Part shown: positions 7,649 through 56,334 of the stretch, piece by piece
Layout: every line of letters starts with the position of its first letter
Numbering within the stretch: the stretch's first letter is position 1
DNA from: Alphaproteobacteria bacterium
Lineage (GTDB): Bacteria > Pseudomonadota > Alphaproteobacteria > UBA2966
Assembly (NCBI GenBank): GCA_964291395.2
Contig: OZ219858.1
Location: 32,001 to 96,000 of the forward strand
Length of the DNA: 64,000 nucleotides
Direction: 5' to 3'
Made by a program: the position numbers and the translations under genes
The notes under the pieces: model-generated
Databases searched by the model: none
What the model saw: only the letters and a program-made list of their open reading frames with translations
What the model was told of the DNA's origin: nothing

Positions 7649-8980
7649 ATGAGTGCACTCTCGGCTCCAAGCGGTCAACCCCTGATCATCGACGATGCGG
7701 AGGCGGGCGTTTTCCGCGTCAATCGGGCCGCCTACGCCTCCGAAGAGGTGTTCGAGCGCGAGCAGCGCGCCCTCTACGATCACTGCTGGCTGCTGCTGGG
7801 ACATGAATCCGAGATCTCCCGACCGGGAGATTTCAAGACCCGCACCATAGCGCTGAGGCCGATCATCCTCTGCCGGGGCGACGACGGACGCGTTCGCGCG
7901 TTCATCAATTCCTGCCCCCATCGCGGCGCGGAGCTGTGTCGCGAAACCGAGGGCAACCGATCCATCTTCCACTGCATGTACCACTCGTGGACGTTCAGGA
8001 ACACGGGCGAGGTGCATACGGTGCGGGCCGAGGAGGGATACACCGGCGGATTCCGGCGTGAGGACTTCCACCTCAAGCAGGTGCCGCGCCTCGAGAGCTA
8101 CCGGGAATTCGTCTTCATCTGCTTCGATCCGGACGCGCCCGATCTGGTGACCTACCTCGGAAACGCGGCGCGTTATCTCGACTATCTCGCCGACCAGGGC
8201 GGCAACGGCATGGAAATCGTCGAGGGCACCCAGCTCTACGCCGCGCGGGCGAACTGGAAGCTGCAAATGGAGAACGTCATCGACTTCTACCATACGGTGC
8301 CGCTGCACACGTCCTACTTCCGCTTCCTCGAGAGCACCGGCGCCGACATCTCCGGCGGCGTGGGCGGCGCCGGCTATGACCTCGGCAACGGGCATTCCGC
8401 CGTGCATTTCAAGGCGGGCTGGGGCCGTCCCGTGGCCCGCTGGGAACCCCGCTGGGGCGAGGCGGAGAAACACCGGCTGGAAGCGCTCCGCACCGATATC
8501 GAGTCGCGCGTCGGAGCGCAGCGCGCCGAGATGATCTGCGACTGGGACCACAACATCCTGGTCTTTCCCAACTTGACCGTCGCCGACGTGGTGGCCCTGG
8601 TGGTGCGCGTGGTCAATCCGATCGCGCCCGGCATGATGGAGATCACCCAGTGGTGCCTGGCGCCCAAGGGCGAACCCGAGGAGGCCCGCTCGCGGCGGCT
8701 GCACGCCTTCAACACCTTCCTCGGTCCGGGCGGTTTCGCCACGCCCGACGACATCGAAGTCTTCGAAGGCTCGCAGCGCGCCTTCTGCGCCCACCGGGAA
8801 CTCGCCTGGTCCGATTTTTCACGAGGCTACCACGGGGAAGCGACCCGGCCCGAAACGGAGATCCGGTCCGACTACGAGGGTCAAATCCGGGCCTTCTACC
8901 GCGAATGGGCGGCGCGCATGGGAGCCATTGTCTCACATCGCGTGGACGGCGCCCTGCCCCGCGAGGCAGCCGCGGAATGA
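7649..8980 (+). CDS. Rieske ring-hydroxylating dioxygenase alpha subunit (benzoate/p-cumate-like)
   Basis: CPHRG...CMYHSW; NWKLQMENVIDFYHTVPLH; FLGPGGFATPDDIE. Confidence 0.95.
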   Translation: MSALSAPSGQPLIIDDAEAGVFRVNRAAYASEEVFEREQRALYDHCWLLLGHESEISRPGDFKTRTIALRPIILCRGDDGRVRAFINSCPHRGAELCRETEGNRSIFHCMYHSWTFRNTGEVHTVRAEEGYTGGFRREDFHLKQVPRLESYREFVFICFDPDAPDLVTYLGNAARYLDYLADQGGNGMEIVEGTQLYAARANWKLQMENVIDFYHTVPLHTSYFRFLESTGADISGGVGGAGYDLGNGHSAVHFKAGWGRPVARWEPRWGEAEKHRLEALRTDIESRVGAQRAEMICDWDHNILVFPNLTVADVVALVVRVVNPIAPGMMEITQWCLAPKGEPEEARSRRLHAFNTFLGPGGFATPDDIEVFEGSQRAFCAHRELAWSDFSRGYHGEATRPETEIRSDYEGQIRAFYREWAARMGAIVSHRVDGALPREAAAE

Positions 8981-9644: not shown

Positions 9645-10880
9645 ATGTCAGCTAACACCGCTGCCACGTCCGCCTTCCACGCACCCACGCACCCTTACCG
9701 CTGGGCCATGCTGGCCGGCGTCTGGCTGATCTATTTCTCGTTCGGAATCTTCGTCGCGTCGATGGCGCCGCTCGTGGCGCCGATCACGGCTGATCTCGAG
9801 ATTTCCCATGGCGCCATGGGCACCGTGCTGGGCGCCTGGCCTCTGGTCTACATCGCCTCGTCGATCCCCGCGGGCGCCCTGATCGACCGCATGGGTCCGC
9901 GCCGCTCCATCATGCTGTGCACGGTGCTGATCACGCTGTCGGGCATTCTGCGCGGCATCGCCGACGACCACCTGTCGATGTTCCTGGCAGTGGCCGTGTT
10001 CGGACTCGGGGGACCGTTGATCTCGATCGGCGCACCGAAAGTGATGAGCCTTTGGTTCGAGGGCAAGGAGCGGGGCCTTGCCATGGGGATCTACATCTCG
10101 GGGCCGGCGGTCGGCAACATCACGTCGCTGGCACTCACCAACAGCGTCATGATGCCGTTCTATGCGGGAGATTGGCGCGCCGTCCTGTTCACTTATGCAG
10201 GCGTTGCCGTGCTCTGCGGCGGGCTGTGGGTGCTCATCTCGGCCCACCCGGCGAGTCGCACGATGGAGCGGCAGATCGCGGGAGAGCCCAAGCGTTCTCA
10301 GATTCAGGTGTTCGGAGAGCTTCTGTCGGAGCCCGTCGTGCGTCTCATCCTGGTGATGAGCGTCGGCATGTTCATCTTCAACCACGGACTCAACAACTGG
10401 CTGCCGGAAATCCTGCGTACCGGGGGAATGGATGCCGCCACCGCCGGTTACTGGGCGTCGATCCCGACGGCCGTCGGCGTCTTCGCGGCGCTGTCGATAC
10501 CCCGCTTCGCGACGGAAGACCGGCGCCTTTCGGTTCTGGGCCTCCTGTTCCTCGCGGCCGGTGCCGCCACGATGCTGCTGCACCTCTCCGCCGGGCCGTT
10601 GCTGGCGGTTGGACTCGTATGCCAGGGCATTGCGCGCGGCGCCATGATGGCCGTCTCCATTCTCGTGCTCGTGGAATCGCCCGGCGTGGACTCGCGAAAC
10701 TCCGGCGCCGCCGGAGGCCTGTTCTTTTCCGCGGCCGAGGTGGGCGGTGTCCTCGGTCCGGTCCTGGTGGGAGCGATCCATGACCTGACCGGGGGCTTCG
10801 CCGCCTCTCTCTACATGATGACCGCCATCTGCGCCGTTCTGCTCCTTCTCCTCTGCCGGCTACGGTCGCTGACGCGGTAG
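9645..10880 (+). CDS. MFS transporter
   Basis: GALIDRMGPRR motif A, about 12 TM segments. Confidence 0.9.
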   Translation: MSANTAATSAFHAPTHPYRWAMLAGVWLIYFSFGIFVASMAPLVAPITADLEISHGAMGTVLGAWPLVYIASSIPAGALIDRMGPRRSIMLCTVLITLSGILRGIADDHLSMFLAVAVFGLGGPLISIGAPKVMSLWFEGKERGLAMGIYISGPAVGNITSLALTNSVMMPFYAGDWRAVLFTYAGVAVLCGGLWVLISAHPASRTMERQIAGEPKRSQIQVFGELLSEPVVRLILVMSVGMFIFNHGLNNWLPEILRTGGMDAATAGYWASIPTAVGVFAALSIPRFATEDRRLSVLGLLFLAAGAATMLLHLSAGPLLAVGLVCQGIARGAMMAVSILVLVESPGVDSRNSGAAGGLFFSAAEVGGVLGPVLVGAIHDLTGGFAASLYMMTAICAVLLLLLCRLRSLTR

Positions 10881-11096
10881 TCACGACATGGCACCATCGC
10901 CCCTTCGGGACTCGCCGGCGAAATGCCCCGCAACAGATGCATCGTCGACCGCAGGAACGGGGACGGCGCGACGTTCCTTATTACGGCGATTTACAAGTTC
11001 GCGGATTGCGCCTATTGAGGCCCCGCACGCACGGCACGGCTCCGTGCTCCCGACGACACCCGCACTCGACGGAATGGCTCCGTCCTGGGGCACAAC

Positions 11097-12326
11097 ATGA
11101 CCGATTCAGCGACGGCGGGCGCCGCCTTCAGGCGGCGGGTCATAGTCATCATCGCCGCGGCCAGCGTCATCGCGGCGCTGTCCTTCGGCATCCGGTCGTC
11201 GTTCGGTATCTTCCTGCAACCCGTCTCGGCCGACCTCGGCTGGGGCCGCGAGATCTTCGCATTCTCCATCGCGCTCTCGTCCGTCCTGTGGGGCGCGGCC
11301 CAGCCCTTCGCCGGCATGCTAGCCGACCGCTTCGGCTCGGGCAGGGTCCTTGCCGCAGGCGCCCTGATGTACGCCGCGGGCATCGCGCTCATGGCATGGT
11401 CCTCGACCCCGCTGGCCGCTCACCTCACGATCGGCGTCCTCGTCGGACTGGGCAACGCCGGCTGCGGGTTGTGGATCGTATACGCGGCGGTGGCCAGGGC
11501 TGCGGCCCCGGAACGCCGCACCCTGGCGGTAGGCATCGTGTCGGCCGCCGGATCCTTCGGCCAGTTCGCCGTGGTGCCGATCGGGCAGGCCTTCCTCGAC
11601 ACCTACGGCTGGCAGACCGCGTTCGTCCTGCTGGGGATCGCCGCGCTCGCGATGCTGCCGATGGCCGGCGCCATCACCGGCCGCGCCGCGGCATCGGCCG
11701 TCGCTCCACAGAGGTTCCGGGCCGCGCTGACGGAGGCCGCGCGCCATCGCGGCTACCTTCTGCTCAATGCCGGGTTCTTCGTCTGCGGATTCCAGGTCAT
11801 CTTCATCAGCACCCACCTGCCGGCCTACGTGGCGGACCGCGGCCTGCCGGCGGAAATAGGCGCCTGGACGCTGGCCCTTGTCGGCCTGGTAAACATCGTC
11901 GGCTCCATCGTCAGCGGGATGCTGGGCGACCGCTTCAGCAAGAAGAGTCTCCTCACGCTGCTGTACCTCGGCCGGGCCGTCGTGATCGCGGCCTTCGTCC
12001 TGTCACCCCCGTCCATTGCCGGCACACTGACGTTCGGCGTGGTCATGGGTCTCGTGTGGTTCAGCGTCATACCGCTGACGACGGCCCTGGTCGCTCAGAT
12101 CTTCGGTTCGCAATACCTGGGGACTCTTTCCGGCATCGTGTTCCTCAGCCATCAGACCGGCGCCTTCCTCGGCGCGTGGCTGGGCGGCCGCCTGTTCGAT
12201 GCGACGGGCTCCTACGATGTCACATGGTGGATCGCGGTCGCCCTCGGCCTCGCCGCGGCGGCCCTTCACTATCCCATCGACGAACGGCCGCTCAGGCGCG
12301 CGGCTCCCGCAGAAGGCGCCGCCTGA
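11097..12326 (+). CDS. MFS transporter (3' end duplicated at ~20.9-21.1 kb)
   Basis: GMLADRFGSGR and GMLGDRFSKK motifs, about 12 TM. Confidence 0.93.
   Translation: MTDSATAGAAFRRRVIVIIAAASVIAALSFGIRSSFGIFLQPVSADLGWGREIFAFSIALSSVLWGAAQPFAGMLADRFGSGRVLAAGALMYAAGIALMAWSSTPLAAHLTIGVLVGLGNAGCGLWIVYAAVARAAAPERRTLAVGIVSAAGSFGQFAVVPIGQAFLDTYGWQTAFVLLGIAALAMLPMAGAITGRAAASAVAPQRFRAALTEAARHRGYLLLNAGFFVCGFQVIFISTHLPAYVADRGLPAEIGAWTLALVGLVNIVGSIVSGMLGDRFSKKSLLTLLYLGRAVVIAAFVLSPPSIAGTLTFGVVMGLVWFSVIPLTTALVAQIFGSQYLGTLSGIVFLSHQTGAFLGAWLGGRLFDATGSYDVTWWIAVALGLAAAALHYPIDERPLRRAAPAEGAA
12184..12310 (+). repeat. Direct repeat copy 1 (MFS 3' end; left junction of island)
   Basis: 12237-12310 identical (74 bp) to 20992-21065; 12184-12236 matches 20939-20991 with 10 mismatches in 53 nt. 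Confidence 0.95.
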
Positions 12327-12373
12327 CCGGCCACGACGGAGTCCAGGACACTGCAGTAATTTCGGAGACCGTG

Positions 12374-13276
12374 TTACGACTCATCGACCTCCGCAATCAG
12401 CCATTCCCGAAATGCGACCGCTTTCGGTGCTGTAAACGCGGCTTCCGGCCCCACGAAATAATACGCAAGATCGAGCGGCATCGTAGTCGGGAATGGACAT
12501 ACCAGCCGGCCAGCCGCTATATCGTCGGCCGCCAAGGATACGCGTCCCAATGCGACACCCAGCCCGTCGACCGCGGCCTGCAGCGCGAAAACAGACTGAG
12601 CGAACCGTAGTCCTCGCGTGGGATCGACCCCCTCTACCTCGGCCGCGAGCAACCACATCGTCCAATCCGGGCTCACATCCGCGAAATCATACGTATCGTC
12701 GTGAATAAGCATGTGGGAACGCAAATCCGCAGGCGCCTTGAGCGGCGATTTCCCTTCAAGCAAGCGCGGACTGCACATGGGCGTTACCGCCTCGGATAGC
12801 AATTTTTCGACTCTGAGCATCGGGTAATTGCCGTCACCGAACCGAACGGCGAGATCGATGTCCGATGTCGAGAAGTCAACCAATTCAATCGTCGTGGAAA
12901 GCCTTACGTCGACATCGGGGTGGGCACCGAGAAAACGATCCAGCCGCGGGATCAACCATTTTGCGGCGAAGGACGGTGCGGTACTGATGGTGAGGACGTT
13001 TTTCGTTTTCTCCTTCCGCGCTTCATCCAGGGCGGCGGCAATTCGCATGCATCCTTCGCGGATACCGGGCAGGAACGCCTGCCCGGCGTCGGTAAGACGC
13101 ACGGCACGATTGAAGCGTAGGAACAGCGGCACGCCCAATAATTCTTCCAGGGACTTGATCCGCTGGCTGATGGCAGCCGGCGTGACTTTCAGTTCCTGAC
13201 CCGCGCGCTGAAAGCTCAGGTGCCGCGCACAAGCTTCGAACGCCTGCAACTGTTCAGTCGAGGGCAGACGTACCAT
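12374..13276 (-). CDS. LysR family regulator, GcvA-like
   Basis: RLPST..LQAFEACARHLSF..A..EL.VTPAAISQRIK.LE; PSFAAKWLIPRL. Confidence 0.93.
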   Translation of the reverse strand: MVRLPSTEQLQAFEACARHLSFQRAGQELKVTPAAISQRIKSLEELLGVPLFLRFNRAVRLTDAGQAFLPGIREGCMRIAAALDEARKEKTKNVLTISTAPSFAAKWLIPRLDRFLGAHPDVDVRLSTTIELVDFSTSDIDLAVRFGDGNYPMLRVEKLLSEAVTPMCSPRLLEGKSPLKAPADLRSHMLIHDDTYDFADVSPDWTMWLLAAEVEGVDPTRGLRFAQSVFALQAAVDGLGVALGRVSLAADDIAAGRLVCPFPTTMPLDLAYYFVGPEAAFTAPKAVAFREWLIAEVDES

Positions 13277-13561
13277 GGTATGCGCCGATAGAGCTTCTTT
13301 GTCCGAAATAATAACCGGGCGGATAACAGAGTATCGTACAAACGGATCACGCCAAAGCGTTCGTCCCGACTCAGAAGCTTGGGAGGACGGGACGCTCGCA
13401 TGCTGGACATCGATCACGGAATCCAGCCCGGATACCTCGCGGCGACCCGTCTAATGAGACTGATCTCAGTGTCCTTTTACGCGGATCTCGACTCTCGGAT
13501 CAGCCGGCAGGCATTTGTGCTCACCGGTACTCTGCACTCGGTGAAATTCGAGGCGCACTAC

Positions 13562-14164
13562 TCAAAAGCGGTTCTTTATCCTTCGTGCCATTGTTTCCGG
13601 CGGGGTGCCGAAGGCAAAGTGAGTGAGATAGCGACCATCCGGCGCCATCAGGAACGTGACGGTGGAATGGTCGAGCACGTAGTCCCCATCTGTGAGGACC
13701 GTTTTTCTGTAGTACGTGCGAAACGCCTTCGCAGCCGTCGCCACCTGGTCTGCCGTGCCCGTCAAACCGGCAATTTGTGGATGGAAGTTCGCGACGTACT
13801 CGGCAAGGACCTGAGGCGAGTCCCGTTCCGGATCCAAGGTTATGAACAGCGGTTGGATTTTCCGGGCGTCGACCCCGAGCCTGTCCAGTGTCATCGAGAT
13901 TTCCAGCAACGTGGTCGGGCAGATGTCGGGACAGGAAGTGTAGCCAAACGAGATGAGCAGATACTTCCCCCGGTAGAACTCATCGGTCACGGCCCGTCCG
14001 CTGTGGTCGATGAGTTCGAACCGTCCGCCAATGTGGAAAACCTTAACGCTTCCGGTGGTTGAAACCTTCGATTCGGCGTATACGCCGGGTCCACCGGTCG
14101 AAAGGGTCGTCAGCGCAAAGAAGGCGACGGTCGCCAAAGCGGTCTTACTTGTCGATCTCTTCAA
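13562..14164 (-). CDS. SCO1/SenC family copper chaperone
   Basis: FGYTSCPDICP (CxxxC), ITLDPERD, YVLDHS; TTG start after GAGGAG; signal-like N-terminus. Confidence 0.93.
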   Translation of the reverse strand: MKRSTSKTALATVAFFALTTLSTGGPGVYAESKVSTTGSVKVFHIGGRFELIDHSGRAVTDEFYRGKYLLISFGYTSCPDICPTTLLEISMTLDRLGVDARKIQPLFITLDPERDSPQVLAEYVANFHPQIAGLTGTADQVATAAKAFRTYYRKTVLTDGDYVLDHSTVTFLMAPDGRYLTHFAFGTPPETMARRIKNRF

Positions 14165-14213
14165 GAAAGACTCCTCGACCCGACTTTCGGTGCAGCCTCG
14201 AACGGCAATCGAT

Positions 14214-15458
14214 TCAGTGGCAGTAGGCGACCGCGCCAGCCATATATAGGCCCCAGGGCTCCTTACCCACATCGTCAATCACCTTCACGAGACGTTGCTT
14301 CGGAACGTCGATCACCGCAACTTGAGCGGTCTTGCTGAGCGCGATGTAGACCTTGGTACCATCGGGTGTCGTCACGCCAATCTCGGGCGACGAGGGCAAC
14401 GGAATTTCCGCGACCACCTCGGGCTCGGTCAGGTCGACGACCAACGCCTTGTTCTCGGCCCGACTCGGGATCACCGCCGTGGTCTCGAACCAACCCGTGT
14501 TGACCCCCGTCATGTCCCGTGCGCCAGGGATGCGGGCCATCTCCTCCAGCGTCCGCATGGAGATGACAGAGATCGTCCCGTCGCCGTTGTTGAGAGAAAT
14601 CAACTGGAGGCTGTCCGCCGTCGCGTAGGTACGAAACGGCACGTCCCCTAGAACCAGGGTCTTCACCTTCTCCTGCGTGCGCAGGTCGATGACGGTCAAC
14701 GTGTCGCTGGCTCCGTGCGAGGCAAATCCCCTGGATCCGAAGGTGGTGCGGCTGAGGTTGATGACGCCCGGGATCAGCCGCTGCGTTCCCGGATCGACTA
14801 TCCCCATTCTGTCACCGGCGGTGTACGCTCCGATCCCGCCCGATGCCGGCCGCCGGTCCGTTGGGCCGATCGGAATCTCCCCGACCACCTCGCCACTGGC
14901 GACGTCGATGACGCTTACCTCCGCCGACCCTAGATTGCCGACATAAAGCAGCTTCCCGTCGGGACCGAAGACCATGGTGTCCGGACCGTGCAGGCCGGGC
15001 ACCGTTCTCAGCACGCGGCCGTGCCGTAGCGAGACGAGAAAGACTTTTCCGGCCTCGACGCTGCTGGCCGCCACGATCTCGCCGTCGCGGTCGATCTCCA
15101 TACGATCCGGATCGTCCCCGAGCTCGATCCTACGGACCACCGCGAGGGTTTCCAAGTCTACCACTGCGATGCTGTCGTCCACGGTGTTGCTGGCAAGCAG
15201 GAAACCCAGCGGCCTGGATGTACTCGCATCCGTCGGAAGCAGAAGCTGATTGGGAATCTGGTCGAGCCGGAGCGTGGTCTCGAGTTCGTCGGACTCGGTG
15301 TCGATAATCGCCACCTCGCTGGTCGCGCGGTCGGGCACGAATACATAGCGCCGCACGTCGTCGAGCGCCGCCACCGGGTGAATGACCGCGAGCAGAAGCC
15401 CGGCCATCGCGCCGACCCGAACCGCGACGGTCGTCGGCGGACGGGCTCTGCCTAGCAC
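14214..15458 (-). CDS. Exported YVTN/YncE-type beta-propeller protein
   Basis: Repeated blades (PDGKLLYVGN..S.EVSVID, TPDGTKVYIA...VAVID); signal-like N-terminus; ends YCH; start uncertain (15458 or 15407). Confidence 0.85.
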   Translation of the reverse strand: MLGRARPPTTVAVRVGAMAGLLLAVIHPVAALDDVRRYVFVPDRATSEVAIIDTESDELETTLRLDQIPNQLLLPTDASTSRPLGFLLASNTVDDSIAVVDLETLAVVRRIELGDDPDRMEIDRDGEIVAASSVEAGKVFLVSLRHGRVLRTVPGLHGPDTMVFGPDGKLLYVGNLGSAEVSVIDVASGEVVGEIPIGPTDRRPASGGIGAYTAGDRMGIVDPGTQRLIPGVINLSRTTFGSRGFASHGASDTLTVIDLRTQEKVKTLVLGDVPFRTYATADSLQLISLNNGDGTISVISMRTLEEMARIPGARDMTGVNTGWFETTAVIPSRAENKALVVDLTEPEVVAEIPLPSSPEIGVTTPDGTKVYIALSKTAQVAVIDVPKQRLVKVIDDVGKEPWGLYMAGAVAYCH

Positions 15459-15460
15459 CG

Positions 15461-17059
15461 TCAGCCCCCGCTCTCCGCGGCTGGGGCATCTCCGATCAGG
15501 ATGTCGTCGATACGCAGGATCGTGACGGCGACCTCGGTCGCCGAGGCGAGCGCCTGGGTCTTTATCTCCAGGGGCTCGAGAATCCCGGCTTCCCAGGCGT
15601 CGACGAGCTGCCCCGACACGACGTCGAATCCGCACCAGGTGTCGTGCCGCTCATGACGGGCTTCCACCAAGCTCAACTGGTCGATCGCATCTGCACCGGA
15701 GCTCTCTATGAGCGTCCGCGGCACGACGGTCATGGCATCGGCGAACGCTTCGGTGACGAGACGCTCCTTCCCTGTCAGCCCCGCGCGTGCGCGCTCCCTC
15801 AACCGCCGGGTCAGCTCGACCTCGACAGCCCCGGCCCCGGCCACCACCTTGCCACGCGTCAGCGCGCTGCCGATATCACCCACCGCATCTTCGAGGGCCC
15901 GCCGGGCCTCTTCCGCGGCATGCGCCGTGCTCCCCTTCACGAGTAGCGTCACCGCCTTCGGATCCTCGCAATCCTCCACGTAAATGAACGTCGACTTTCC
16001 GAGGGTTTCCTCGTGAATCCTGCCCGCTCGGCCGAGATGGGCGGCGTCCAGCATGTGCGGCGACGAGACGATCCGGGCTCCGGTCGCCTTGGCGAGCCGC
16101 ACCAGATCGCCGCGGGGGACCCGGCGGACTGCGAAGACCCCGGCCTGGCTCAGGAAGTCGTCCGCCGGCTCCTCGATATTCTGCTGGCAGAACAAAACAT
16201 TGCAGCCCGAGGCAACGATCCGTTCGACCATCTCGGCCAGATTCTTCCGCTCCTGCTCCACGAAGGCCTGCATTTGACGGGGGTCGCTGATGTGAATCTG
16301 GGTGGCGATCTCCGGGTCCTTGATCTCGATCGGCTGATCGATCAGCCCCACGTTCGCCCTTTCGACGCGCGTCGGCATGGACGGGTGCGCGCGCTCCCGC
16401 GCCAGCAGCACGCCCTTCATCAGCGTGCTGGCCTCGGTCGGCTCACCGACCATGCGCTCTAGCTTCACTCCGTCGTCGTCGATCACCGCGCGCTTGCCGT
16501 CGTACCGGATCACCTTTCTCACCGCCTGGATGGCGAGCGATGCCAGCGTTTCCTTAGCCGATTCGACGGCCTTTCCGGTCATTGCGGTATGGGCGACCCG
16601 CGTGATGATCTCGTCGTCGTCGGGACCGACCGCCTCGCCGATGTCCTCGAGGATCTCCTGGGCCATGCGTTCGGCGGTGCGAAAACCTCGGGCGATGACG
16701 GCTGGATGAAGGTCCATCTCCAGCAGGTCTTCAGCCTTGCGCAACACCTCGCCGGCGAGCACGATGACGGTCGTCGTGCCGTCTCCGACTTTGTCCTGCT
16801 GCGTGACGGCCGCCTCGATGGCCAGCTTGGCGGCGGGATGCCTGACCCGCATTTCGTTGAGGAGCGTGAAGCCGTCGTTCGTCACGACGATGTCGCCCAG
16901 GCCGTCGACGACCATCTTGTCCATGCCCTTGGGCCCGAGCGTGGAGCGCACGGTTTGGGCAAGGGCATGGATGACCGAGATGTTCGACCGGTGGGCGTCC
17001 CTGCCGGTCGTCCTTTCCATGTCCTCGGATACTCCGAGCGTGTCCCGCCTGTTCACCAT
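15461..17059 (-). CDS. Thermosome-type group II chaperonin subunit
   Basis: STLGPKGMDKM, VTNDG, HPAAK, VGDGTTT, TAMTGK, lid segment IEIKDPEIATQIHISDP, VLFCQ, AVRRV, LAKATGARIV, ILRIDD. Confidence 0.93.
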   Translation of the reverse strand: MVNRRDTLGVSEDMERTTGRDAHRSNISVIHALAQTVRSTLGPKGMDKMVVDGLGDIVVTNDGFTLLNEMRVRHPAAKLAIEAAVTQQDKVGDGTTTVIVLAGEVLRKAEDLLEMDLHPAVIARGFRTAERMAQEILEDIGEAVGPDDDEIITRVAHTAMTGKAVESAKETLASLAIQAVRKVIRYDGKRAVIDDDGVKLERMVGEPTEASTLMKGVLLARERAHPSMPTRVERANVGLIDQPIEIKDPEIATQIHISDPRQMQAFVEQERKNLAEMVERIVASGCNVLFCQQNIEEPADDFLSQAGVFAVRRVPRGDLVRLAKATGARIVSSPHMLDAAHLGRAGRIHEETLGKSTFIYVEDCEDPKAVTLLVKGSTAHAAEEARRALEDAVGDIGSALTRGKVVAGAGAVEVELTRRLRERARAGLTGKERLVTEAFADAMTVVPRTLIESSGADAIDQLSLVEARHERHDTWCGFDVVSGQLVDAWEAGILEPLEIKTQALASATEVAVTILRIDDILIGDAPAAESGG

Positions 17060-17233
17060 GCCGATAGCCCTCCCTCACCGGCGCGCCCACTACCGGCCTG
17101 GCAAGGAGCCTCCCAAAATCCCGGATTGCCGGGGATTGCGAGCGGCTCCTTCCTCAGGCTCCGCACCGTGCGTGGGCGTCCGTCCCCACGGCCCTCGCGA
17201 AAGGAGGGGTGGCTTCCGTCGCCGGCCCGTCGG

Positions 17234-18559
17234 CTAGATCCGGAACGCCTTCATTGCCTCTCCCCAGGCGCGTTTGCGGAAGGCATCGGACGTCACGTCC
17301 ACCGTGCCCTCCGTCATGACGCCGGTGATGGGCTCGAAGGGTTCCGTGAGCTCCGGCGCGTGATGCGTGTCGATCAGTTCGTCGAGCTTGAACTTCTTCT
17401 TGCCCAAACCGATCTTCATCATCGTATCGTTCCACAGCGAGTCGACCGACGCGTAGTTGAGCCCGTAGTGCCAACGGGCCCGGAAGTACTCCGACACCCA
17501 TTCCACGGGGGCGGGCGTACCGGAAACCTGGGCGGCGATCTCGACCGTCTCCCCCCAGTTGTCCCGCATGAACTCGCAGGCCTTCTTGTGGCCCTCGATC
17601 ACCGCGAGGATCATCTCGTCGGGAAGACCCGGCCGAGCCGCCAGCCCAACGCACTGCACGTAGGTCTGGGTGTCCCGGCCGTCGGCGCTCATCATGTGGT
17701 CGCCGCCGTCGAGGCAGTGGCCGATCACCTTGGCCTCCTTGAAGTATTCCGGATACGAGTCGTACTGCTCGCAGATGGTCTGCGCGTCGACCTGGCCCGT
17801 GACCAGGGCCGTGGCCACCTCGGGTGGCGGCAGGTAGTGGATCTTGAAGTCCTTCTCCGGATCGAGCCCGTGGTCCATGATGGTCCGGAAGCACGCGGCG
17901 TGCGTGATCGTCCCGGGCACGAGCGTGGATATCCGGACGGGATCTCCGTCCGCCTTCCGCTTGGCCGCATACTCGAAGAACTTAGGGAAATCCGTGAGGC
18001 CCTGATCGTAGAGTTCCTGCCGGACGGCCCAGCCGCCGTGGCCGACCATGCCGCCCACGATGTGCTTCGAGGGGATGCCCTTCTGGGCCGCGACCCCGGG
18101 CGTGTTGCTGCCGACGTAGGCGAAGTCAATCTCTTCCGCGATGAACGCTTCCATCACCTGCGGACCGGAGGGCGCGCCGAGGAACTTGGTATCCCAGCCC
18201 ATGCTCTCGAAGATCCCCTTCTTCTCGAGAATGTAGCCCAGGAGCTCACAATCGAGAGTATTGATGTAGCCGTATCGTATAGTGCCTTTCGTGGCACCCT
18301 TCGTGGACGTCCCGGCTTTCGCGCCGGTCGGGGTCGCCGCGATCGAACTCGCAAGGGCGAACGCCGTGCCGCCCGCCGCCGCGGCTTGACCGAACTCGCG
18401 ACGCGTGAGACTACGGGCACGCACGCGGTCCAACTCTGCCCTGTGTTCGTGATACTCCCGGTGGGTCTTCTGAAACGCCTTGGGCGTTATGTCCGGATCC
18501 ATGACCAAGTCCCAGAAGCCCGTCTCTCCGGTCCCATCCTGGTTGCGCTTGGTTGTCAT
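17234..18559 (-). CDS. ABC transporter substrate-binding protein, NitT/TauT/SsuA-like, Tat signal
   Basis: LTRREFG twin-arginine motif, TIRYGY, SGPQVMEAF...IDFAYVG, ALVTGQVDA; AAGGAG RBS. Confidence 0.85.
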   Translation of the reverse strand: MTTKRNQDGTGETGFWDLVMDPDITPKAFQKTHREYHEHRAELDRVRARSLTRREFGQAAAAGGTAFALASSIAATPTGAKAGTSTKGATKGTIRYGYINTLDCELLGYILEKKGIFESMGWDTKFLGAPSGPQVMEAFIAEEIDFAYVGSNTPGVAAQKGIPSKHIVGGMVGHGGWAVRQELYDQGLTDFPKFFEYAAKRKADGDPVRISTLVPGTITHAACFRTIMDHGLDPEKDFKIHYLPPPEVATALVTGQVDAQTICEQYDSYPEYFKEAKVIGHCLDGGDHMMSADGRDTQTYVQCVGLAARPGLPDEMILAVIEGHKKACEFMRDNWGETVEIAAQVSGTPAPVEWVSEYFRARWHYGLNYASVDSLWNDTMMKIGLGKKKFKLDELIDTHHAPELTEPFEPITGVMTEGTVDVTSDAFRKRAWGEAMKAFRI

Positions 18560-18624
18560 CTTCTTGCTCCTTCGCCGCCGTTGCTGTCGCGCCTGCATTC
18601 AGTGTGATCCGACGGTAACGGCGC

Positions 18625-18861
18625 CTATTCCGCCGCTTGCGGCTTTCGTTTGATGGTCAAGCCTTCGGGTTCATCGCCGTATTCCGGCAGATGCTCCCCC
18701 GCCTTGTAATGATTGAAGCCCGGATGTTCTCGCACGATGACGTAGACGTACTCCCGTGGCGCCTCGAAATGGTCCACGACCGCATTCGTGAGGGCTTCCT
18801 GAAGCGCATGAATGTCTTCTCTGGAGCGGCCCTCCCGCACATCAATCTGAATGATCGGCAT
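18625..18861 (-). CDS. 4-oxalocrotonate tautomerase superfamily protein (CaaD alpha-like)
   Basis: Pro1 after Met, DVREGRS, VIVRE, GEHLPEY. Confidence 0.85.
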   Translation of the reverse strand: MPIIQIDVREGRSREDIHALQEALTNAVVDHFEAPREYVYVIVREHPGFNHYKAGEHLPEYGDEPEGLTIKRKPQAAE

Positions 18862-19003
18862 AACTTTACTCCCGCGTGTTCACTTCAGCTTCGCGGCCCG
18901 TCACATTAACCCGCACGACCCGGCCGCCCGAGGAAACGCACGAGCCGATGAGTAGAAGTATCGGCCTGCACCGGGATCCTGGCAAACGAATAGTGACAGC
19001 GTC

Positions 19004-19026
19004 TCGGATAAACCCGGTTTATCCGA
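19004..19026. promoter_or_regulatory. Perfect 11-1-11 palindrome, candidate operator
   Basis: TCGGATAAACC-C-GGTTTATCCGA in the intergenic gap upstream of the tautomerase gene. Confidence 0.55.
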
Positions 19027-19066
19027 AGAATTGGGACTTGCCCGCCCTCGCGCCATTTTCACGAAC

Positions 19067-19825
19067 TCAGAACTCGTCTTGGCGCATCATCCTGTAAATC
19101 TCGGCTTCGAGGTCAACGAGACGAGAATCCCCGGAATCGCGATCTACATTGGGTGTCCGCAGATCCCGGTCGAGGTCGAACACTCTGACGATTTCGCCGG
19201 GCTTGGTCTTGAAAAGCGATATGCGCGAGCCGAGAAGAAGCGCCTCCCGGATCGAATGAGTCACGAACACGACCGTCTTTTGCGTTTCCTTCCAGATTCG
19301 CAGAAGCTCCTGTTGCATGTAAGTCCGCGTCTGAGCGTCGAGCGCTCCGAACGGCTCGTCCATGAGCAGCATGGCGGGATCGTTCGCGAGTACCGAGGCA
19401 AGCACCATTTTCTGTTTCATTCCGCCCGATATCTGAGACGGATAGTAGGTCTCGAACTCGCGGAGGCCGACCAGATCGACATACTTCTGCGCGACATCCA
19501 TGCGCTCGTCCTTCGGCAAACCCTGCACTTCCAGACCGAATTCGATGTTGCGGATGACGGTTCGCCAGGCGAAGTGGGTTCCTTCCTGAAAGACGAGCGC
19601 CCGATCGGCGCCGGGGCCCGTAATCGGCCGGTCACCGCGCGCGACCTGTCCACTCGTCGGGAACTCGAAGCCGGCGATCATGCGCAACAAGGTCGTCTTG
19701 CCGCATCCGCTGGGCCCCAGCAGCACGTGGAGCTCTCCGGTCAATATCTCGAGGTCGATTCCTTGCAGAGCCTGAAAGCCGTTGAAGCTTTTCGAGACAC
19801 TCTCGATCGTGACCTCGGCGCTCAT
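19067..19825 (-). CDS. ABC transporter ATP-binding protein (TauB/SsuB-like)
   Basis: GPSGCGKTT, ISGGMKQK, LLMDEPFGALDAQTR, FVTH. Confidence 0.95.
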   Translation of the reverse strand: MSAEVTIESVSKSFNGFQALQGIDLEILTGELHVLLGPSGCGKTTLLRMIAGFEFPTSGQVARGDRPITGPGADRALVFQEGTHFAWRTVIRNIEFGLEVQGLPKDERMDVAQKYVDLVGLREFETYYPSQISGGMKQKMVLASVLANDPAMLLMDEPFGALDAQTRTYMQQELLRIWKETQKTVVFVTHSIREALLLGSRISLFKTKPGEIVRVFDLDRDLRTPNVDRDSGDSRLVDLEAEIYRMMRQDEF

Positions 19826-20691
19826 CCCTTCACCACTCCTTTGCGCCAACGGAAGAGCACGTCCTCGATGGCCAGGACTCCCCGGACCATGAGTACGCTC
19901 AAGGCGCCGATAGCGACCATCCCGCCGATCACCGCCTCGGTCTCGAAGGCATAACGGGCCTTCCAGATCATCCAGCCGAGACCGTGGTCTACCGAGATCA
20001 TCTCCGCCGCCACGACCGTCATCCAGCAGAAGCCGATGGCGATGCGCATGCCGACGAAAGCCGAGGGAAGCGCCGAGGGAACGACGACCTTCCAGAGAAC
20101 CTGGCGGGTGGATGCACCGAGCGTCTGCGAGTACTCGATAACCTTCTTATCCACCGAGTGGACCCCCGCGATCACGGAGACGATCATCGGGAAGAAGGCT
20201 CCCAGCGTGGTGATGAATATGACCGACTTCACGCCGACGCCGAGCCAGATTACGCTCAGCGGAATCCAGGCCAACGGCGGCACCGGGCGCAGGACCTCGA
20301 CCAGCGGATTTATCAGTTGTTCAAGGACCCGCGACCAGCCGATCAGCAAGCCCAGCGGCATGGCCAGTATCAGCCCGATGAAGAAGCCGCCGAAGACCCG
20401 CGCACAACTCCACAGGATGGCCTGGACCAGATCGCCGGAGACCATGCGGTCGAAGAGCGTGACCACCACCGTGGTAAAGGTGGGCAGCTTGATGGGCGGA
20501 AACACACCTGTCCGCGCGACCGCCTCCCACACCACAATCGCCACCGCGATCACGATCAACGACCGCACCGTTCCGAAGATTCGGGGCTTCGCGCCCGCTC
20601 CGTCAGACTGTGGACTTCGTTGGTCCGCGAGGGCTCCGTGCGTCAGCGTCTCTACCGAGGACTCGGAATCACCCGTCGTCGTGCTGGCCAT
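19822..20691 (-). CDS. ABC transporter permease (TauC/SsuC-like)
   Basis: LRPVPPLAWIPL, EAA-like EYSQTLGAS...VVVPSALP, VVAAEM; ATGA coupling to ATPase. Confidence 0.95.
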   Translation of the reverse strand: MASTTTGDSESSVETLTHGALADQRSPQSDGAGAKPRIFGTVRSLIVIAVAIVVWEAVARTGVFPPIKLPTFTTVVVTLFDRMVSGDLVQAILWSCARVFGGFFIGLILAMPLGLLIGWSRVLEQLINPLVEVLRPVPPLAWIPLSVIWLGVGVKSVIFITTLGAFFPMIVSVIAGVHSVDKKVIEYSQTLGASTRQVLWKVVVPSALPSAFVGMRIAIGFCWMTVVAAEMISVDHGLGWMIWKARYAFETEAVIGGMVAIGALSVLMVRGVLAIEDVLFRWRKGVVKG

Positions 20692-20938
20692 GACGGCATC
20701 TCCCGTATCACGCACAACCCCTCTGCCGTGCGGCAAGGACCTCCCCCGCCGAACCATCGGCCGAGACCGTCGGAACGCGAAACAGCGAAAGTATCGGCCG
20801 GTGGCACGGGGCTGACAAACGATTAATCATCGGGTTCGCACAAATCCTACTAAAGCGATGGTATCGATCCTTGCAACCGAGGCGAAGGTGACGTTCGCCC
20901 GGCTGTCCGAAAATCCCTTTCGCCAAGCACTTGGCATA

Positions 20939-21069
20939 GCGGCCGCCTGTTCGACTTGACGGGTTCGTACGACATTACGTGGTGGATCGCCGTCGCCCTC
21001 GGCCTCGCCGCGGCGGCCCTTCACTATCCCATCGACGAACGGCCGCTCAGGCGCGCGGCTCCCGCTTGA
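20939..21069 (+). repeat. Direct repeat copy 2: detached MFS 3' fragment (right junction)
   Basis: Translates GRLFDLTGSYDITWWIAVALGLAAAALHYPIDERPLRRAAPA*, no start or upstream MFS sequence. Confidence 0.95.
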
Positions 21070-21117
21070 CGCCCGACATGCCGAGCGTCACGTAGCCGCC
21101 TCCTCCAGAGCACGGGT

Positions 21118-22665
21118 TCAGTTCAATCTCAGCAGAAACGTGTGAGTCCCGACGGTGGTCGAAACTTCGAGGTCACCGTCGACCTCGCGCCAGTCGTCGC
21201 TCCTTTCCCCATCGACGATGACCGTGCACGACTTGGGATTCACGTTGGTCACGCGGAAGGTCGTGGGCTCGCCGCGCGCCGGCGGGATCCCGGGATCGGT
21301 CGCCACGACCAGCATGCGCCGGCTCTCGTCGTAGACCGCTTGGCTCAGGCAAACCTTGGGAAAGTCGACGCCGTAGACCGTCGGATCGACGAACTTCCTC
21401 AAGTTGGGCTCGTTGAAGAGCCGCCACCAGGCGCCTTCACTGATCGATTCCGCCATGGCGGCCGAAGCGTTGAACTGGCCGCGCGGGTGCGGCTCGTTCA
21501 GCCCGAACCTCCAGGTGAATTCCAGCGTCTCGGGGTCGAGGGTGGGTTCGTGGTGCTCCTCGGCGCAGACCTTGAGCTTGGCGTGGACCGCGTCGTCGCC
21601 GAATTCGCGGGCGAAGGCCAGGCCGTAAAGCGTGGCCCGCGGGTTGCCGGGCGACTCTTCGGCGGGCTCGAGCGATCTCCAACCCAGACATTCGACGGCC
21701 GAATCGAAGAACTGGCGCGCCACGTCGTGGCGCTGCGGGGCCAGCCCGAGGACCATGAGGAACTTGTCGTAGTTGCCCCAGAAGAACGACCCGGTGCCGT
21801 CGGGCCGCATGCTGATCTTATGGTTGTAGTCGATTATCGGGTCGTAGTAGTTGGTGTACCAGTCACCGACCTTGCCGTCCCGCATGGGCAGGTAGTGGTG
21901 CAGCGCGTATTCCCACCAGTTGTCGAAGACCAGATGCAGGTCCGTGCGGTGATTGATGTCGTGGAGCCTCAGACCGAGGCCCGCGGGAGCCAGTCATATG
22001 GGCCAGACCTTGGTGTTCTCGCAGTGGCACCCTTCGGGCCGTGACGACCACTGTTTGGCGAGGTGCCCGGCAACGCCCGAATAGGTCCAGGTGAACGTGT
22101 TCTCGCCGTCTCGGATGGTCTCGAAGGGCTCGTTCCACTTGTCGTCGTTCGTGACGTACTTGTGCAGCCCGAGGACGATGAGGAAATTCCCCTTGAGCCA
22201 GAGCGCGCCGTCGGCCCGGATAGGGTCGATCTGGCGGCCCCAGGGCTCGACCCCGTCGGCGGTCCAGCCGGGCGTGTCGTAGCGGCCACGCAGGAACCGG
22301 GGGATCCAGGCCTCGTACCATTCCTCCGGATACTGGTCGCGGCGCGGGTCCTCGCCGATCTGCGTCAGCCAGTCCTCCGCAGCCCACCAGCCCGTATAGC
22401 GAAATGTGAGCTCGTCGAGGATGGTGCCGTAGACCTCGCGCCAAGCCGGGGTGGTATCGCACATGAGGCCCATGGCATAGCTCGACTCGAACAGGTCGAA
22501 ACGGTACCAGGAGCGCCGCGGCTCGCCGCTGATGTTGTCCCAGTGGGGATGGGGCCGGCTCTCCTTGTCCCAGTTGTCCGGGGTCGTCGCCTTGCGGTGG
22601 AGATAGCGAAGCCACCCGCGGCTGCGTTCGCTGAGTTCCGGGTAACCTGCCACTGTCGACGGCAT
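21118..22665 (-). CDS. Linalool dehydratase/isomerase (Ldi)-like protein, predicted selenoprotein (Sec codon 224, TGA 21994-21996), 515 aa
   Basis: ORFs 21994-22665 and 21118-21885 are in frame with only a TGA between; CHCENTKVWPI-U-LAPAGLGLRLHD resembles the Ldi Cys-x8-Cys region; SECIS-like hairpin follows. Confidence 0.8.
21964..21982 (-). promoter_or_regulatory. Bacterial SECIS element
   Basis: GGGCCTC-GGTCT-GAGGCTC hairpin; loop starts after 18 nt from TGA and begins GG. Confidence 0.75.
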
Positions 22666-22850
22666 GAAGCGCCCTTACCCTCTAGTTGTCTTGGCCCGCA
22701 ACAGAGAGTGTAGCGGGCAATTCCCGGATGACAATTGTCCCGTCCGAGAACGGTGCCCGTCCCGAAGACGGCACGAAAACTGGTACAGTTTTCAAGCCCC
22801 CGGTAGAGTGACCTTCCCGGTCGATCGTCATATTCGAGGAAAGGATCCGC

Positions 22851-23483
22851 ATGAAGCTCCACGACTTCGATCCCGCTCCCAATGCCCAGCGTGTCCGCGT
22901 GTTCATGGCGGAGAAGGGACTCGAGATTCCGATCGTCGAGGTGAAGGTACGCGACGGCGTGATGTTCGAAGAACCCTACCGCTCCATGAACCCCTTCGCG
23001 GTCGTTCCGTTCCTCGAGCTCGATGACGGGACGTGCATCGGCGAGTCGGTCTCTATCTGCCGCTACCTGGAAGATCTCCATCCGACGCCCTCCCTGATGG
23101 GACGCGACCCCAAGGAACGAGCACTCATCGACATGTGGAACCGTCGGGTCGAACTGGACGGTTACTTGCCCATCATGCATGCGCTGCGCAACGCGGAGCC
23201 TTCATTTCAGGGGCGGGTCGTCCCCGGCACACGGAACGATCTCGTCCAATTCCCCGAAATCGTCGAGCGGGGCAAGGACATGCAGCTGATCCTGCTCGAA
23301 CGGCTCGAGGCGCAGCTCGCGGACAATCGCTTCATCGCCGGCGAGGCCTTCTCCATCGCCGATATCACCGGCTATTTCTTGATCCGATTGGGAGACCGGC
23401 TCGATTTCCCAATTCCCGATGACCGGCCCAACGTGGCACGCTGGTACGAAGACGTGGCCGCCCGTCCGAGCACCCAGGCCTAG
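22851..23483 (+). CDS. Glutathione S-transferase family protein
   Basis: APNAQRVRVFMAEKG, NP...VP.LELDDG.CIGES..ICRYLE, FSIADIT. Confidence 0.93.
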   Translation: MKLHDFDPAPNAQRVRVFMAEKGLEIPIVEVKVRDGVMFEEPYRSMNPFAVVPFLELDDGTCIGESVSICRYLEDLHPTPSLMGRDPKERALIDMWNRRVELDGYLPIMHALRNAEPSFQGRVVPGTRNDLVQFPEIVERGKDMQLILLERLEAQLADNRFIAGEAFSIADITGYFLIRLGDRLDFPIPDDRPNVARWYEDVAARPSTQA

Positions 23484-23589
23484 GAAACGGCGCGCCCGCA
23501 CGGTTCCGCCCCGACACCATGCGCTTTGACGAAGCGCCCGTCTCTCCTACACTGGACGAGGGCTCTGACTCCGTATCTGGAAGGCTGCC

Positions 23590-24537
23590 ATGTCCGTCTC
23601 CCTCGTCTGCATGTCGCACAGCCCGCTCATGATGGGCGCGCTGTCCCCTTCCGATCGGTCCCAGGAGGAGACGTTCTTCCACGTTGTCAGCGAAGCCGGA
23701 GAGTGGATCGAATCTAGGGACCCGGACCTGATCGTGGTTTTCGGACCGGATCATTTCGGTGGGCTTTTCTACGATCTGATGCCGGGCTTCGTGATCGCCG
23801 CCGCGGCCCATGGCAGCCACGATTGGGGACTGGAACCGGGTCCCCTGGACGTTCCCGAGGACATCGCCATGGCGTGCTTCCGCCACCTCACGGCCGAGGG
23901 ATTCGATCCGGCGTTTTCCTACGACATGCGGGTCGACCACGGCACCACCATCCCGCTGATCAAACTCACCGGAGCGCTGGCCGCCTACCCGGTCCTGCCC
24001 ATCGTCATCAACTGCGCCGCCATCACCCGCCCCGGGTTCCGCCGCGTACGGGAGTTGGGCGCCGCGGTCGGTCGATTTTTGGCCGGCCTCGACAAGCGCA
24101 TCGTCATCATCGGCTCCGGGGGACTTTCGCACGATCCGCCCACGCCGGTGATCGACCTCAACGACGAGAGAATCGTAAACAGAGTGGTCAAGCGGAACGT
24201 GCCTACACCCGAGGAGTTCAAGCGCCGCGAAGCCCGGGTGGTCGAGGCGGCGAAGGCGATGTGCCGGGGCGAAGGTCCGCTTCTGCCGCCGAGCGAGAAG
24301 TTCGACCGGCGATTCCTGGAGCATTTGATGATGGGCGACCTCGAAGCGTTCGACGACTGGTCCGATGAGATGATGGACCGGGAAGCCGGGTTCGGCGGCC
24401 ATGAAGTGCGCTGCTGGGTGGCCGCCGCGGCGGCGGTGGCGGCGGCGTCGGACGGCGAGCCGGATTTCACCCTCGACTATTACGACATCATCCCCGAGTG
24501 GATCACCGGCATGGCCGTGGTGCGCGGCACCGCGTAG
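23590..24537 (+). CDS. mhpB: Extradiol ring-cleavage dioxygenase, MhpB/LigB family
   Basis: CMSHSPL, FGPDHF.GLFYDLMP, VDHG, GSGGLSHDPP, GGHEVRCWVAA. Confidence 0.85.
   Translation: MSVSLVCMSHSPLMMGALSPSDRSQEETFFHVVSEAGEWIESRDPDLIVVFGPDHFGGLFYDLMPGFVIAAAAHGSHDWGLEPGPLDVPEDIAMACFRHLTAEGFDPAFSYDMRVDHGTTIPLIKLTGALAAYPVLPIVINCAAITRPGFRRVRELGAAVGRFLAGLDKRIVIIGSGGLSHDPPTPVIDLNDERIVNRVVKRNVPTPEEFKRREARVVEAAKAMCRGEGPLLPPSEKFDRRFLEHLMMGDLEAFDDWSDEMMDREAGFGGHEVRCWVAAAAAVAAASDGEPDFTLDYYDIIPEWITGMAVVRGTA

Positions 24538-56258: not shown

Positions 56259-56334
<76 letters not shown>

Follow-up and report, generated by a model that had tools for sequence, protein, structure and literature searches.

What is an archaeal-type chaperonin doing in the genome of an alphaproteobacterium, and with what is it kept there? 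The question is raised by one gene in the 64,000-nucleotide stretch of DNA analysed here (the window, C3:32001-96000 of a three-contig assembly). A sequence-only reading had described its product as a 532-residue Cpn60/TCP-1 family protein with group II hallmarks, intact ATP motifs and a nucleotide-sensing loop, with no groES beside the gene and no GGM tail, and had interpreted it as a true thermosome, brought into a proteobacterial genome by interdomain transfer and retained as a pathway-dedicated chaperone. The description holds. By its sequence the gene codes for a true chaperonin subunit of group II (thermosome type), carried by an uncultured alphaproteobacterium, and what is new is its fixed partnership with a binding protein that appears to carry a twin-arginine translocation (Tat) leader. 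The interpretation is supported too, with corrections that are discussed with the tree and the gene neighbourhood.

The minus-strand open reading frame (ORF) occupies exactly the interval given in Table 1 and has no internal stops, and the plus-strand reading of the same interval has many. Pfam Cpn60_TCP1 (PF00118) matches residues 33-521 with 521 bits (E 3.7e-156), far beyond chance, and the protein passed the cut-offs of both NCBIfam thermosome models, thermosome_alpha (NF041082, 618.7 bits against 450) and thermosome_beta (NF041083, 609 against 400); the models for CCT gave 265-392, all far under their cut-offs. The solved structures matched (60 shown of 130) are archaeal thermosomes, one resurrected ancestral group II chaperonin and CCT subunits, the last ranking after the thermosomes, and the top relative among the matches shown is Mm-cpn of Methanococcus maripaludis (E 1.5e-148). 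A GroEL (group I) identity was also considered and was rejected: the GroEL models gave 34-91 bits against cut-offs of 352-1041, and the genome's only two Cpn10 (groES) matches lie on another contig, C1, directly upstream of GroEL-type genes, with none adjacent to the thermosome. The N-terminus of the chaperonin has no hydrophobic stretch, and its C-terminus has no Gly/Met-rich end.

All the motifs quoted earlier are found in the translation (TLGPKGMDKM, HPAAK, VLFCQ, AVRRV, TNDG, GDGTTT, ALEDA and TAMTGK), as is the lid stretch IEIKDPEIATQIHISDPRQMQAFVEQE. The alignment with Mm-cpn (514 columns) contains three small indels, none of them in the nucleotide-sensing loop or the lid: the loop (residues 150-175) is gap-free, with K163 opposite K161 of Mm-cpn, and so is the segment 217-319 that holds the lid stretch. 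D391 stands opposite D386, the residue altered in the PDB entry 'Lidless D386A Mm-cpn variant'. The six ATPase residues that we checked (D62, D93, T95, T96, K163 and D391) are invariant in 23/23 rows of the bacterial clade to which the protein belongs and in 78/78 archaeal rows. Judged from these alignments, the residues for ATP binding and catalysis are conserved in the clade, as are the sensing-loop Lys and a full-length lid. The clade also has 14 fixed differences from the 78 archaeal rows, five of them at residues 293-300, a segment which we place in the apical domain. The Gly/Met-rich C-terminal tail has been lost in the clade; the archaeal C-termini (12 rows looked at) mostly end in Gly/Met/Pro-rich tails. 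The clustering of substitutions at 293-300, together with the lost tail, suggests specialisation.

Among the best 120 of 3445 homologues, 18 clusters (P0002-P0019) share 55-93% identity with the window protein, followed by thermosomes at 49-53%, of which those that are named come from Woesearchaeota, Nanoarchaeota or DPANN. The 18 clusters include the 'thermosome alpha subunit' of Afipia carboxidovorans OM5 (ACI92780.1) and sequences from an Afipia sp. metagenome-assembled genome (MAG) and a Rhodospirillaceae MAG. In the careful tree (IQ-TREE, LG+C20+F+G4 by posterior mean site frequencies, 70 rows, 549 columns) the bacterial clade of 19 rows is monophyletic with a support of 100/100. It joins the Woesearchaeota-type rows L006, L013, L014 and L030 at 100/98, and a Woese/Nanoarchaeota clade of 37 rows encloses it at 100/96; a FastTree tree of 242 rows agrees. 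All of the labelled cluster representatives (10/10) are archaeal thermosomes. The most basal row of the clade, P0018, comes from contigs of at most 5.6 kb and has kept archaeal-looking motifs. As far as the sequences tell, the nearest relatives of the clade are Woesearchaeota/Nanoarchaeota-type (DPANN) thermosomes. The archaeal-to-bacterial step appears to be old, at the base of the bacterial clade, and the genome studied here most likely got its thermosome from another bacterium, as part of an island. Interdomain transfer is supported by a clade that is monophyletic, groups with Woesearchaeota-type thermosomes and is patchy in bacteria, within the limits set by the AU tests given below.

Three of the four sister rows are labelled 'uncultured Methanosarcinales', yet group with the Woesearchaeota row. 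The same holds more widely: L006-L010, L013, L014, L018, L020, L021, L029, L031 and L047 are titled 'uncultured Methanosarcinales archaeon', and their thermosomes group with those of Woesearchaeota/Nanoarchaeota, so that the taxonomic labels of these records look unreliable. Two other homologues, P0148 (1057 residues) and P0150 (1047 residues), are about twice as long as usual and align with the thermosome over two separate stretches, which may mean that each consists of two chaperonin subunits fused in tandem.

Searches for vehicles and further carriers gave the following results. Thermosome relatives are encoded in 322/429 stretches of viral contigs, the best at 42% identity, and none of these belongs to the bacterial clade, so there is no sign of a viral vector among them; the matches are consistent with the thermosome-carrying archaeal viruses reported in the portion of PMC5649160 considered here. 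The plasmid search returned 21 matching records, all haloarchaeal and none bacterial. A scan of a genome collection gave at least 600 matches, from which the 80 loci kept are all archaeal; it missed Afipia and is uninformative on the bacterial distribution.

The gene neighbourhood is where the bacterial clade departs from its archaeal relatives. We used a clade-specific DNA pattern to find three metagenome loci (L086, L087 and L088), whose thermosomes are, respectively, 100% identical to that of the Afipia sp. MAG, 100% identical to P0007 and 99.8% identical to that of OM5. A survey of bacterial homologues for conserved neighbours, as the sequence-only reading had proposed, gives this outcome: an ATP-binding cassette (ABC) ATPase, the thermosome and a beta-propeller protein follow each other in this order in 3/3 loci (by tblastn), the ATPase copies being 66-68% identical to that of the window. 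L087, the only locus long enough, also has the binding protein and the full permease upstream, and its flanks (AcnX, CobT) are unrelated to those of the window. Every locus that could be read contains the same block, consisting of the Tat-leader binding protein, permease, ATPase, thermosome and secreted YVTN propeller, and in none of them does the thermosome adjoin groES or dnaK. Binding protein, permease and propeller are found beside the thermosome in 0/80 archaeal loci, and the block was therefore assembled in bacteria. Within the Afipia-type group the dN/dS of the thermosome is 0.026 (L086 vs L087) and 0.049 (L087 vs L088); the clade is under strong purifying selection.

The arrangement of the window differs in detail from the Afipia type. 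The thermosomes of Afipia (Oligotropha) carboxidovorans OM5 and the Afipia sp. MAG belong to the same clade, at 57-60% identity, and L088 has ATPase, thermosome and propeller in order; in OM5 the binding protein ACI92777 lies three genes from the thermosome, judged by accession numbers. The binding protein comes first in L087, whereas in the window it comes after the ATPase, with a native tautomerase gene between them, and the window propeller is only 27-29% identical to the copies in the other loci.

The binding protein and the thermosome also occur together beyond these loci. The binding-protein family consists of 15 clusters at E<=1e-20 among 5.8 billion proteins, and for 8/15 the longest contig has the same length as that of a cluster in the thermosome clade or of a member of such a cluster, so that at least eight clusters seem to lie on the same contigs as genes of the thermosome clade. 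Of the remaining seven, six are on contigs of less than 5 kb; the seventh and most distant, P0431 (41% identity), is on a 17.2-kb contig with no thermosome-clade contig of matching size. In four annotations of Afipia carboxidovorans the accession numbers of binding protein and thermosome are exactly 3 apart, which fits the order binding protein, permease, ATPase, thermosome. The identities of the thermosome and the binding protein to those of the window run parallel (e.g. 93/93, 65/65 and 64/66). The binding-protein family seems to be almost confined to loci with the thermosome.

The binding protein has the SsuA/NrtA fold and belongs to the class II substrate-binding proteins of the SsuA/TauA/NrtA type. 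We took as its start the Met shared with its relatives, which is residue 14 of the longest ORF (17234-18598). In the family alignment (A2, 15 rows) this start is shared, the N-terminal ~50 residues are conserved, and they are followed by an invariant R66 R67, the nearly invariant E68 and F69 and a hydrophobic stretch; the protein thus appears to have a Tat leader, and TatC is encoded in the genome. Three Cys (C117, C276 and C316) and two His (H294 and H377) are invariant in the family. The AlphaFold model has a predicted local distance difference test score (pLDDT) of 80.1, with parts of the leader below 50, and Foldseek matches it to SsuA, TauA, CmpA, NrtA and PqqT at 13-18% identity (SsuA 2x26, E 1.1e-15). 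The NCBIfam equivalogs all scored below their cut-offs. A complex prediction for the thermosome with binding-protein residues 14-100 returned a score of 0.00 and a mark of 0.32, which counts neither for nor against binding.

The propeller gene lies on the other side of the thermosome. It probably starts at GTG 15458, 2 nt after the chaperonin stop, or at ATG 15407, and the gap between thermosome and propeller is 2-8 nt in the window and L087. In 4/4 loci the N-terminus of the protein carries, by eye, a Sec-like signal with an AxA-like site just before a conserved motif. The wider family is large: it comprises 608 proteins at E<=1e-5, most of the 120 listed having 44-51% identity, and relatives of the propeller are found without a thermosome in 4/400 genomes of the class. 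In both of two such contexts (L094, 10736-11545; L096, 8506-9471) the propeller relative is followed by a Peptidase_S41 gene, with no transporter and no thermosome, a context that gives no clue to the function of the module.

The best overall explanation of these observations, to which we give a probability of roughly 0.6, is that the group II chaperonin is kept with the transporter module, where it would act in the bacterial cytoplasm as a folding cage that is driven by ATP and closed by its own lid, serving the module rather than the proteome at large. Within the module, the best client candidate is the binding protein, because a Tat substrate folds before export, its conserved leader is long and its family appears to be found almost only beside the thermosome. 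A binding protein with a Tat leader would have to fold in the cytoplasm before export, possibly with a cofactor or metal, given the three invariant Cys and two invariant His, and its mature domain of ~40 kDa would probably fit a thermosome cavity. That its precursor is the client is nevertheless only a possibility, and less likely than service to the module as such. More tentative still is the narrowest version, in which Alphaproteobacteria would have turned a group II chaperonin captured from a DPANN-like archaeon into a machine with one client, a cytoplasmic cage that folds and proofreads a single Tat-exported Cys/His binding protein, whose long conserved leader would recruit the chaperonin. 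The pathway-dedicated chaperone of the sequence-only reading fits the conserved synteny and the co-occurrence with one binding-protein family, and stays conjectural as regards the client.

Several points weigh against this explanation and should be set beside it. The tie to a client is conjectural, and the linkage may reflect co-transfer only, chaperonins being promiscuous. The tightest neighbour of the chaperonin gene is the propeller, which looks Sec-exported (by eye); the Tat motif of the binding protein was likewise judged by eye rather than by a predictor. The sharing of contigs follows from equal contig sizes and was read directly only for L086-L088 and the window. The hint of expression given by the contigs of the RNA library X16 (15817-16166, 14612-15055 and 17542-18394) is qualified by the fact that RNA-library contigs can contain DNA. 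On the side of family and origin, the older subfamily model TIGR02339 (thermosome_arch) scored 594.4, under its cut-off of 671.1. The trees are made up of the bacterial clade, thermosomes from archaea and the GroELs of this genome, with no group III or CCT rows. Approximately unbiased (AU) tests leave the root open, as placing the 49 archaeal rows on one side costs 2.1 log-likelihood units (lnL) with p 0.145, so that a root on the bacterial stem is not rejected, and make the nesting borderline, as grouping the 18 Woese/Nano rows to the exclusion of the bacterial clade comes at a cost of 29.3 lnL with p 0.055, for a group that was chosen after the tree was seen.

The alternative that survives best, though we consider it unlikely, is that of a general-purpose auxiliary chaperonin that is carried along by a mobile transporter island, assists a wide range of proteins under stress and has no dedicated client. 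Chaperonins are broad-spectrum by nature, the host already has two groES-groEL pairs, to which an extra chaperonin could be a stress add-on, and the island is dispensable in the genus, being absent from all five congeners. However, a hitch-hiker should lose its linkage, and the thermosome and binding protein have remained linked across ~40% sequence divergence. The apparently almost exclusive occurrence of the 15 binding-protein clusters where the thermosome is, as well as the fixed substitutions at 293-300 and the lost tail, also argue for a more specialised protein.

It is less probable again that the chaperonin has its client or partner elsewhere in the module, in the ABC ATPase, in the permease while this is being assembled or in the propeller before its export, or that it has a non-folding role. 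The gap of 2-8 nt suggests coupled translation of thermosome and propeller, and the propeller has kept its position despite its divergence to 27-29% identity. Against this stands the Sec-like signal in 4/4 loci: Sec export means crossing the membrane unfolded, so that the propeller, if Sec-exported, could not be the client. The size of its family and its occurrence without a thermosome in the class point the same way.

A third alternative concerns descent: the clade would go back to an old lineage inherited vertically within bacteria, would be the sister group of all archaeal thermosomes and would owe nothing to transfer. The AU test does not reject the corresponding split, the 49 archaeal rows against the bacterial clade plus GroEL, because that tree does no more than shift GroEL, on its very long branch (length 10), to the long stem of the bacterial clade. 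We nevertheless regard vertical descent as very improbable. It would root the archaeal thermosomes inside a shallow Woesearchaeota cluster, and the window protein is 50-53% identical to DPANN thermosomes against 30-46% for more distant cluster representatives. Its distribution in bacteria is also patchy, with the thermosome found in 0/40 relatives (5 of the same genus, 7 of the family, 10 of the order and 18 of the class) and in 0/400 further genomes of the class, which are samples and not a census.

A group III (Carboxydothermus-type) chaperonin, which would likewise be a lidded, GroES-independent-looking Cpn60 in a bacterium, represents the sole bacterial 'thermosome' type described in the portions of PMC5635000 and PMC5220055 considered here, and has a negligible probability in this case. 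The hallmarks given in that part of PMC5635000, which also describes the role of the sensing-loop Lys, are residence in the dnaK operon, a sensing loop that has been shortened by six residues and carries Arg instead of Lys, and deletions in the lid. None of the three features tested is present in the 532-residue chaperonin. Its gene (C3:47464-49059) is outside the dnaK operon, with the binding protein and the propeller as neighbours, and the genome's only full-length HSP70 match (C3:873228-875015) is 825 kb away; the sensing loop is full and has the Lys; there is no lid deletion relative to Mm-cpn. Moreover, the 50-53% identity is to true archaeal thermosomes. The 149 aligned cluster representatives include no sequence with the six-residue loss. 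Where bacterial thermosome-like genes are mentioned in the parts considered of PMC5635000, PMC5220055, PMC12696368, PMC3907059 and PMC5649160, they are described as group III or as 'primarily in Firmicutes'; PMC5635000 covers 195 group III sequences in its Supplementary Table 1 and Fig. 1.

An assembly chimera or archaeal contaminant, an idea favoured by the genome contamination estimate of 9.01% and by the archaeal origin of the nearest named homologues, can be dismissed, since the flanks are collinear with those of congeners, third-position GC content (GC3) is host-like, the same arrangement recurs in independent runs, bacterial genes stand on both sides in 4/4 loci and a cultured Afipia strain has the same block.

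The three contigs (2.64, 0.20 and 1.33 Mb) have a GC content of 63.7-64.0%, C1 carries a bacterial 16S and both groES-groEL pairs, and dnaK is on C3, the same contig as the thermosome. Prefoldin alpha was not found in the genome by a search that did find it in four archaeal control genomes. The DnaK cluster (90% identity) includes a MAG labelled 'Alphaproteobacteria bacterium', the sequences that cluster with the thermosome and with the binding protein bear the labels 'Rhodospirillaceae bacterium' and 'Alphaproteobacteria bacterium', and in another assembly the members of the thermosome, binding-protein and DnaK clusters are each on a contig of 2,530,980 nt. The GC3 of the thermosome gene is 0.84, against 0.74-0.88 in its neighbours. 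A 20-kb query matched 5/5 congeners, and both flanks are collinear at 82-89% identity in four of them (G001, G002, G004 and G005). Positions 12001-21300 of the window are present in 20 of 24 listed sequencing runs, from 15 studies, mostly labelled sponge metagenome. In one run (X2) the pieces cover 10001-22824 with ~1.7% difference and an even depth of 11-15; one of them (record 18) spans 12270-15910, from the regulator into the chaperonin, and the pieces abut at 12270/12271 and 21025/21026, both inside the repeats that bound the island. Record 31 of another run (X3) spans the right-hand repeat; the left joint at 12310 is bridged by no piece listed. Because of the collinear flanks, the host-like GC3 and the independent runs with the same stretch, we conclude that the gene is neither a chimera nor a contaminant.

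Table 1. Coordinates of the chaperonin gene, the genes of its module and the other features of the island (positions in the window)
Feature	Position	Strand	Basis or remark
Direct repeat copy 1, 3' end of native major facilitator superfamily (MFS) gene 11097-12326	12172..12310		Repeat family D1
LysR-family (GcvA-like) regulator, island edge	12374..13417	minus	Pfam HTH_1 and LysR_substrate; PRK11139 349.9 vs cut-off 288
SCO1/SenC copper-chaperone-like protein	13562..14278 (longest ORF; true start probably later)	minus	Pfam SCO1-SenC 166.8 bits
Secreted YVTN/YncE-like seven-bladed beta-propeller	14214..15458	minus	Pfam YNCE 59.8 bits, NCBIfam YVTN repeat; same position in L086-L088
Group II (thermosome-type) chaperonin, P0001	15461..17059	minus	ORF, Pfam, NCBIfam, PDB matches, Mm-cpn alignment
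SsuA/NrtA-fold (NMT1-like) binding protein	17234..18559	minus	Pfam NMT1_2 63.4 bits
4-oxalocrotonate-tautomerase-family gene, 78 residues	18625..18861	minus	Pfam Tautomerase 47.8 bits
ABC ATP-binding subunit (taurine/sulfonate/nitrate type)	19067..19849	minus	Pfam ABC_tran; best NCBIfam matches all below cut-off
ABC permease (TauC/SsuC/NtrB type)	19822..20757	minus	Pfam BPD_transp_1, NCBIfam; 61% identical copy in L087
Direct repeat copy 2, duplicated MFS 3'-end remnant, other island edge	20927..21065		Repeat family D1

In the window the module lies within an island of ~8.75 kb, bounded by 139-nt direct repeats of 89% identity at a spacing of 8755, and all genes between the repeats are on the minus strand (Table 1). 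The stretch ~12330-21100 is absent in G001, G002, G004 and G005, where the MFS gene joins the sequence from ~21110 onward directly, and the island block was found in 0/5 congeners searched. The SCO1/SenC gene was not matched in L086-L088, in which there is little DNA downstream of the propeller. The tautomerase gene appears to be native and not part of the module, splitting the island between binding protein and ATPase: in congener G005 a match to 18611-18989 (85% identity) lies between the same genes as those bordering the island in the window. With this segment apparently native at the site, the island represents two insertions or one rearranged insertion. Its history may have been a gain in this lineage or a loss in others, both of which fit.

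In run X1 a low-depth contig (4.3) connects the right edge (21077) with the left edge (12373) of the island, and could represent an excised circle, a tandem copy formed via the repeats or an assembly-graph artefact. A second direct repeat, of 37 nt and 70% identity (family D3), has one copy at 20789-20825, just upstream of the permease start, and the other at 18956-18992, between the ATPase and the tautomerase/binding-protein genes, and could be a shared operator or promoter element. The native genes around the island include, at 7649-8980 and 22851-24537, a Rieske ring-hydroxylating oxygenase alpha subunit, GST, LigB-type extradiol dioxygenase and MFS transporters, a neighbourhood that resembles aromatic-compound catabolism. 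Two further native minus-strand genes (21118-21885 and 21994-22665) have no Pfam or NCBIfam match and are 84-89% conserved in the congeners. The sole RNA gene found in the window is a tRNA-Lys (CTT) at 56259-56334 on the minus strand.

Textbooks place group II chaperonins in archaea and eukaryotes. Archaeal thermosomes (Mm-cpn, PDB 3KFB, from Methanococcus maripaludis, and those of Woesearchaeota/Nanoarchaeota) are of the same family as the window protein and share its architecture, full lid, sensing-loop Lys and catalytic Asp. In contrast to them, the window protein is in a bacterial genome without prefoldin alpha, has lost the tail, carries the 14 clade-fixed substitutions and is encoded in a transporter operon shared by none of the 80 archaeal loci. 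System-specific Tat chaperones such as TorD, DmsD and NapD are encoded beside the Tat substrate that they serve. The logic proposed here, a cytoplasmic chaperone beside its long-leader Tat substrate, may be the same by analogy, but TorD, DmsD and NapD are small binding proteins and not cages driven by ATP; we know of no chaperonin in such a role. The group III protein Ch-CPN of Carboxydothermus hydrogenoformans (An et al. 2017, PMC5635000, in the part considered) is likewise a lidded, thermosome-like chaperonin in a GroEL-bearing bacterium; group III has been described mainly from Firmicutes and thermophiles, whereas the clade of the window protein is alphaproteobacterial and lacks the group III features tested. 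The extra GroEL paralogues with specialised tasks in Alphaproteobacteria, as presented in the portion of PMC5220055 considered, are also additional chaperonins with possibly few clients, but they are group I proteins with GroES, and the window protein is a group II chaperonin of archaeal descent. Among the papers listed by full-text searches, none deals with a thermosome in Afipia, Oligotropha or Alphaproteobacteria; the clade is small, annotated in databases and apparently undiscussed.

These results reveal a canonical group II protein that is kept under strong purifying selection in Alphaproteobacteria and tied to one small gene block. They also date the transfer of a large oligomeric machine from a DPANN-like source to bacteria, and suggest that Tat export may have helpers of a new type. 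A functional link would make it possible to study a thermosome side by side with its natural client in a simple bacterial setting, with the same block in the cultured strain OM5, and would show how a foreign folding machine gains a foothold beside GroEL. Should the one-client version hold true, this would be the first chaperonin in the role of a system-specific Tat chaperone and could serve as a minimal natural model for the client specificity of CCT.

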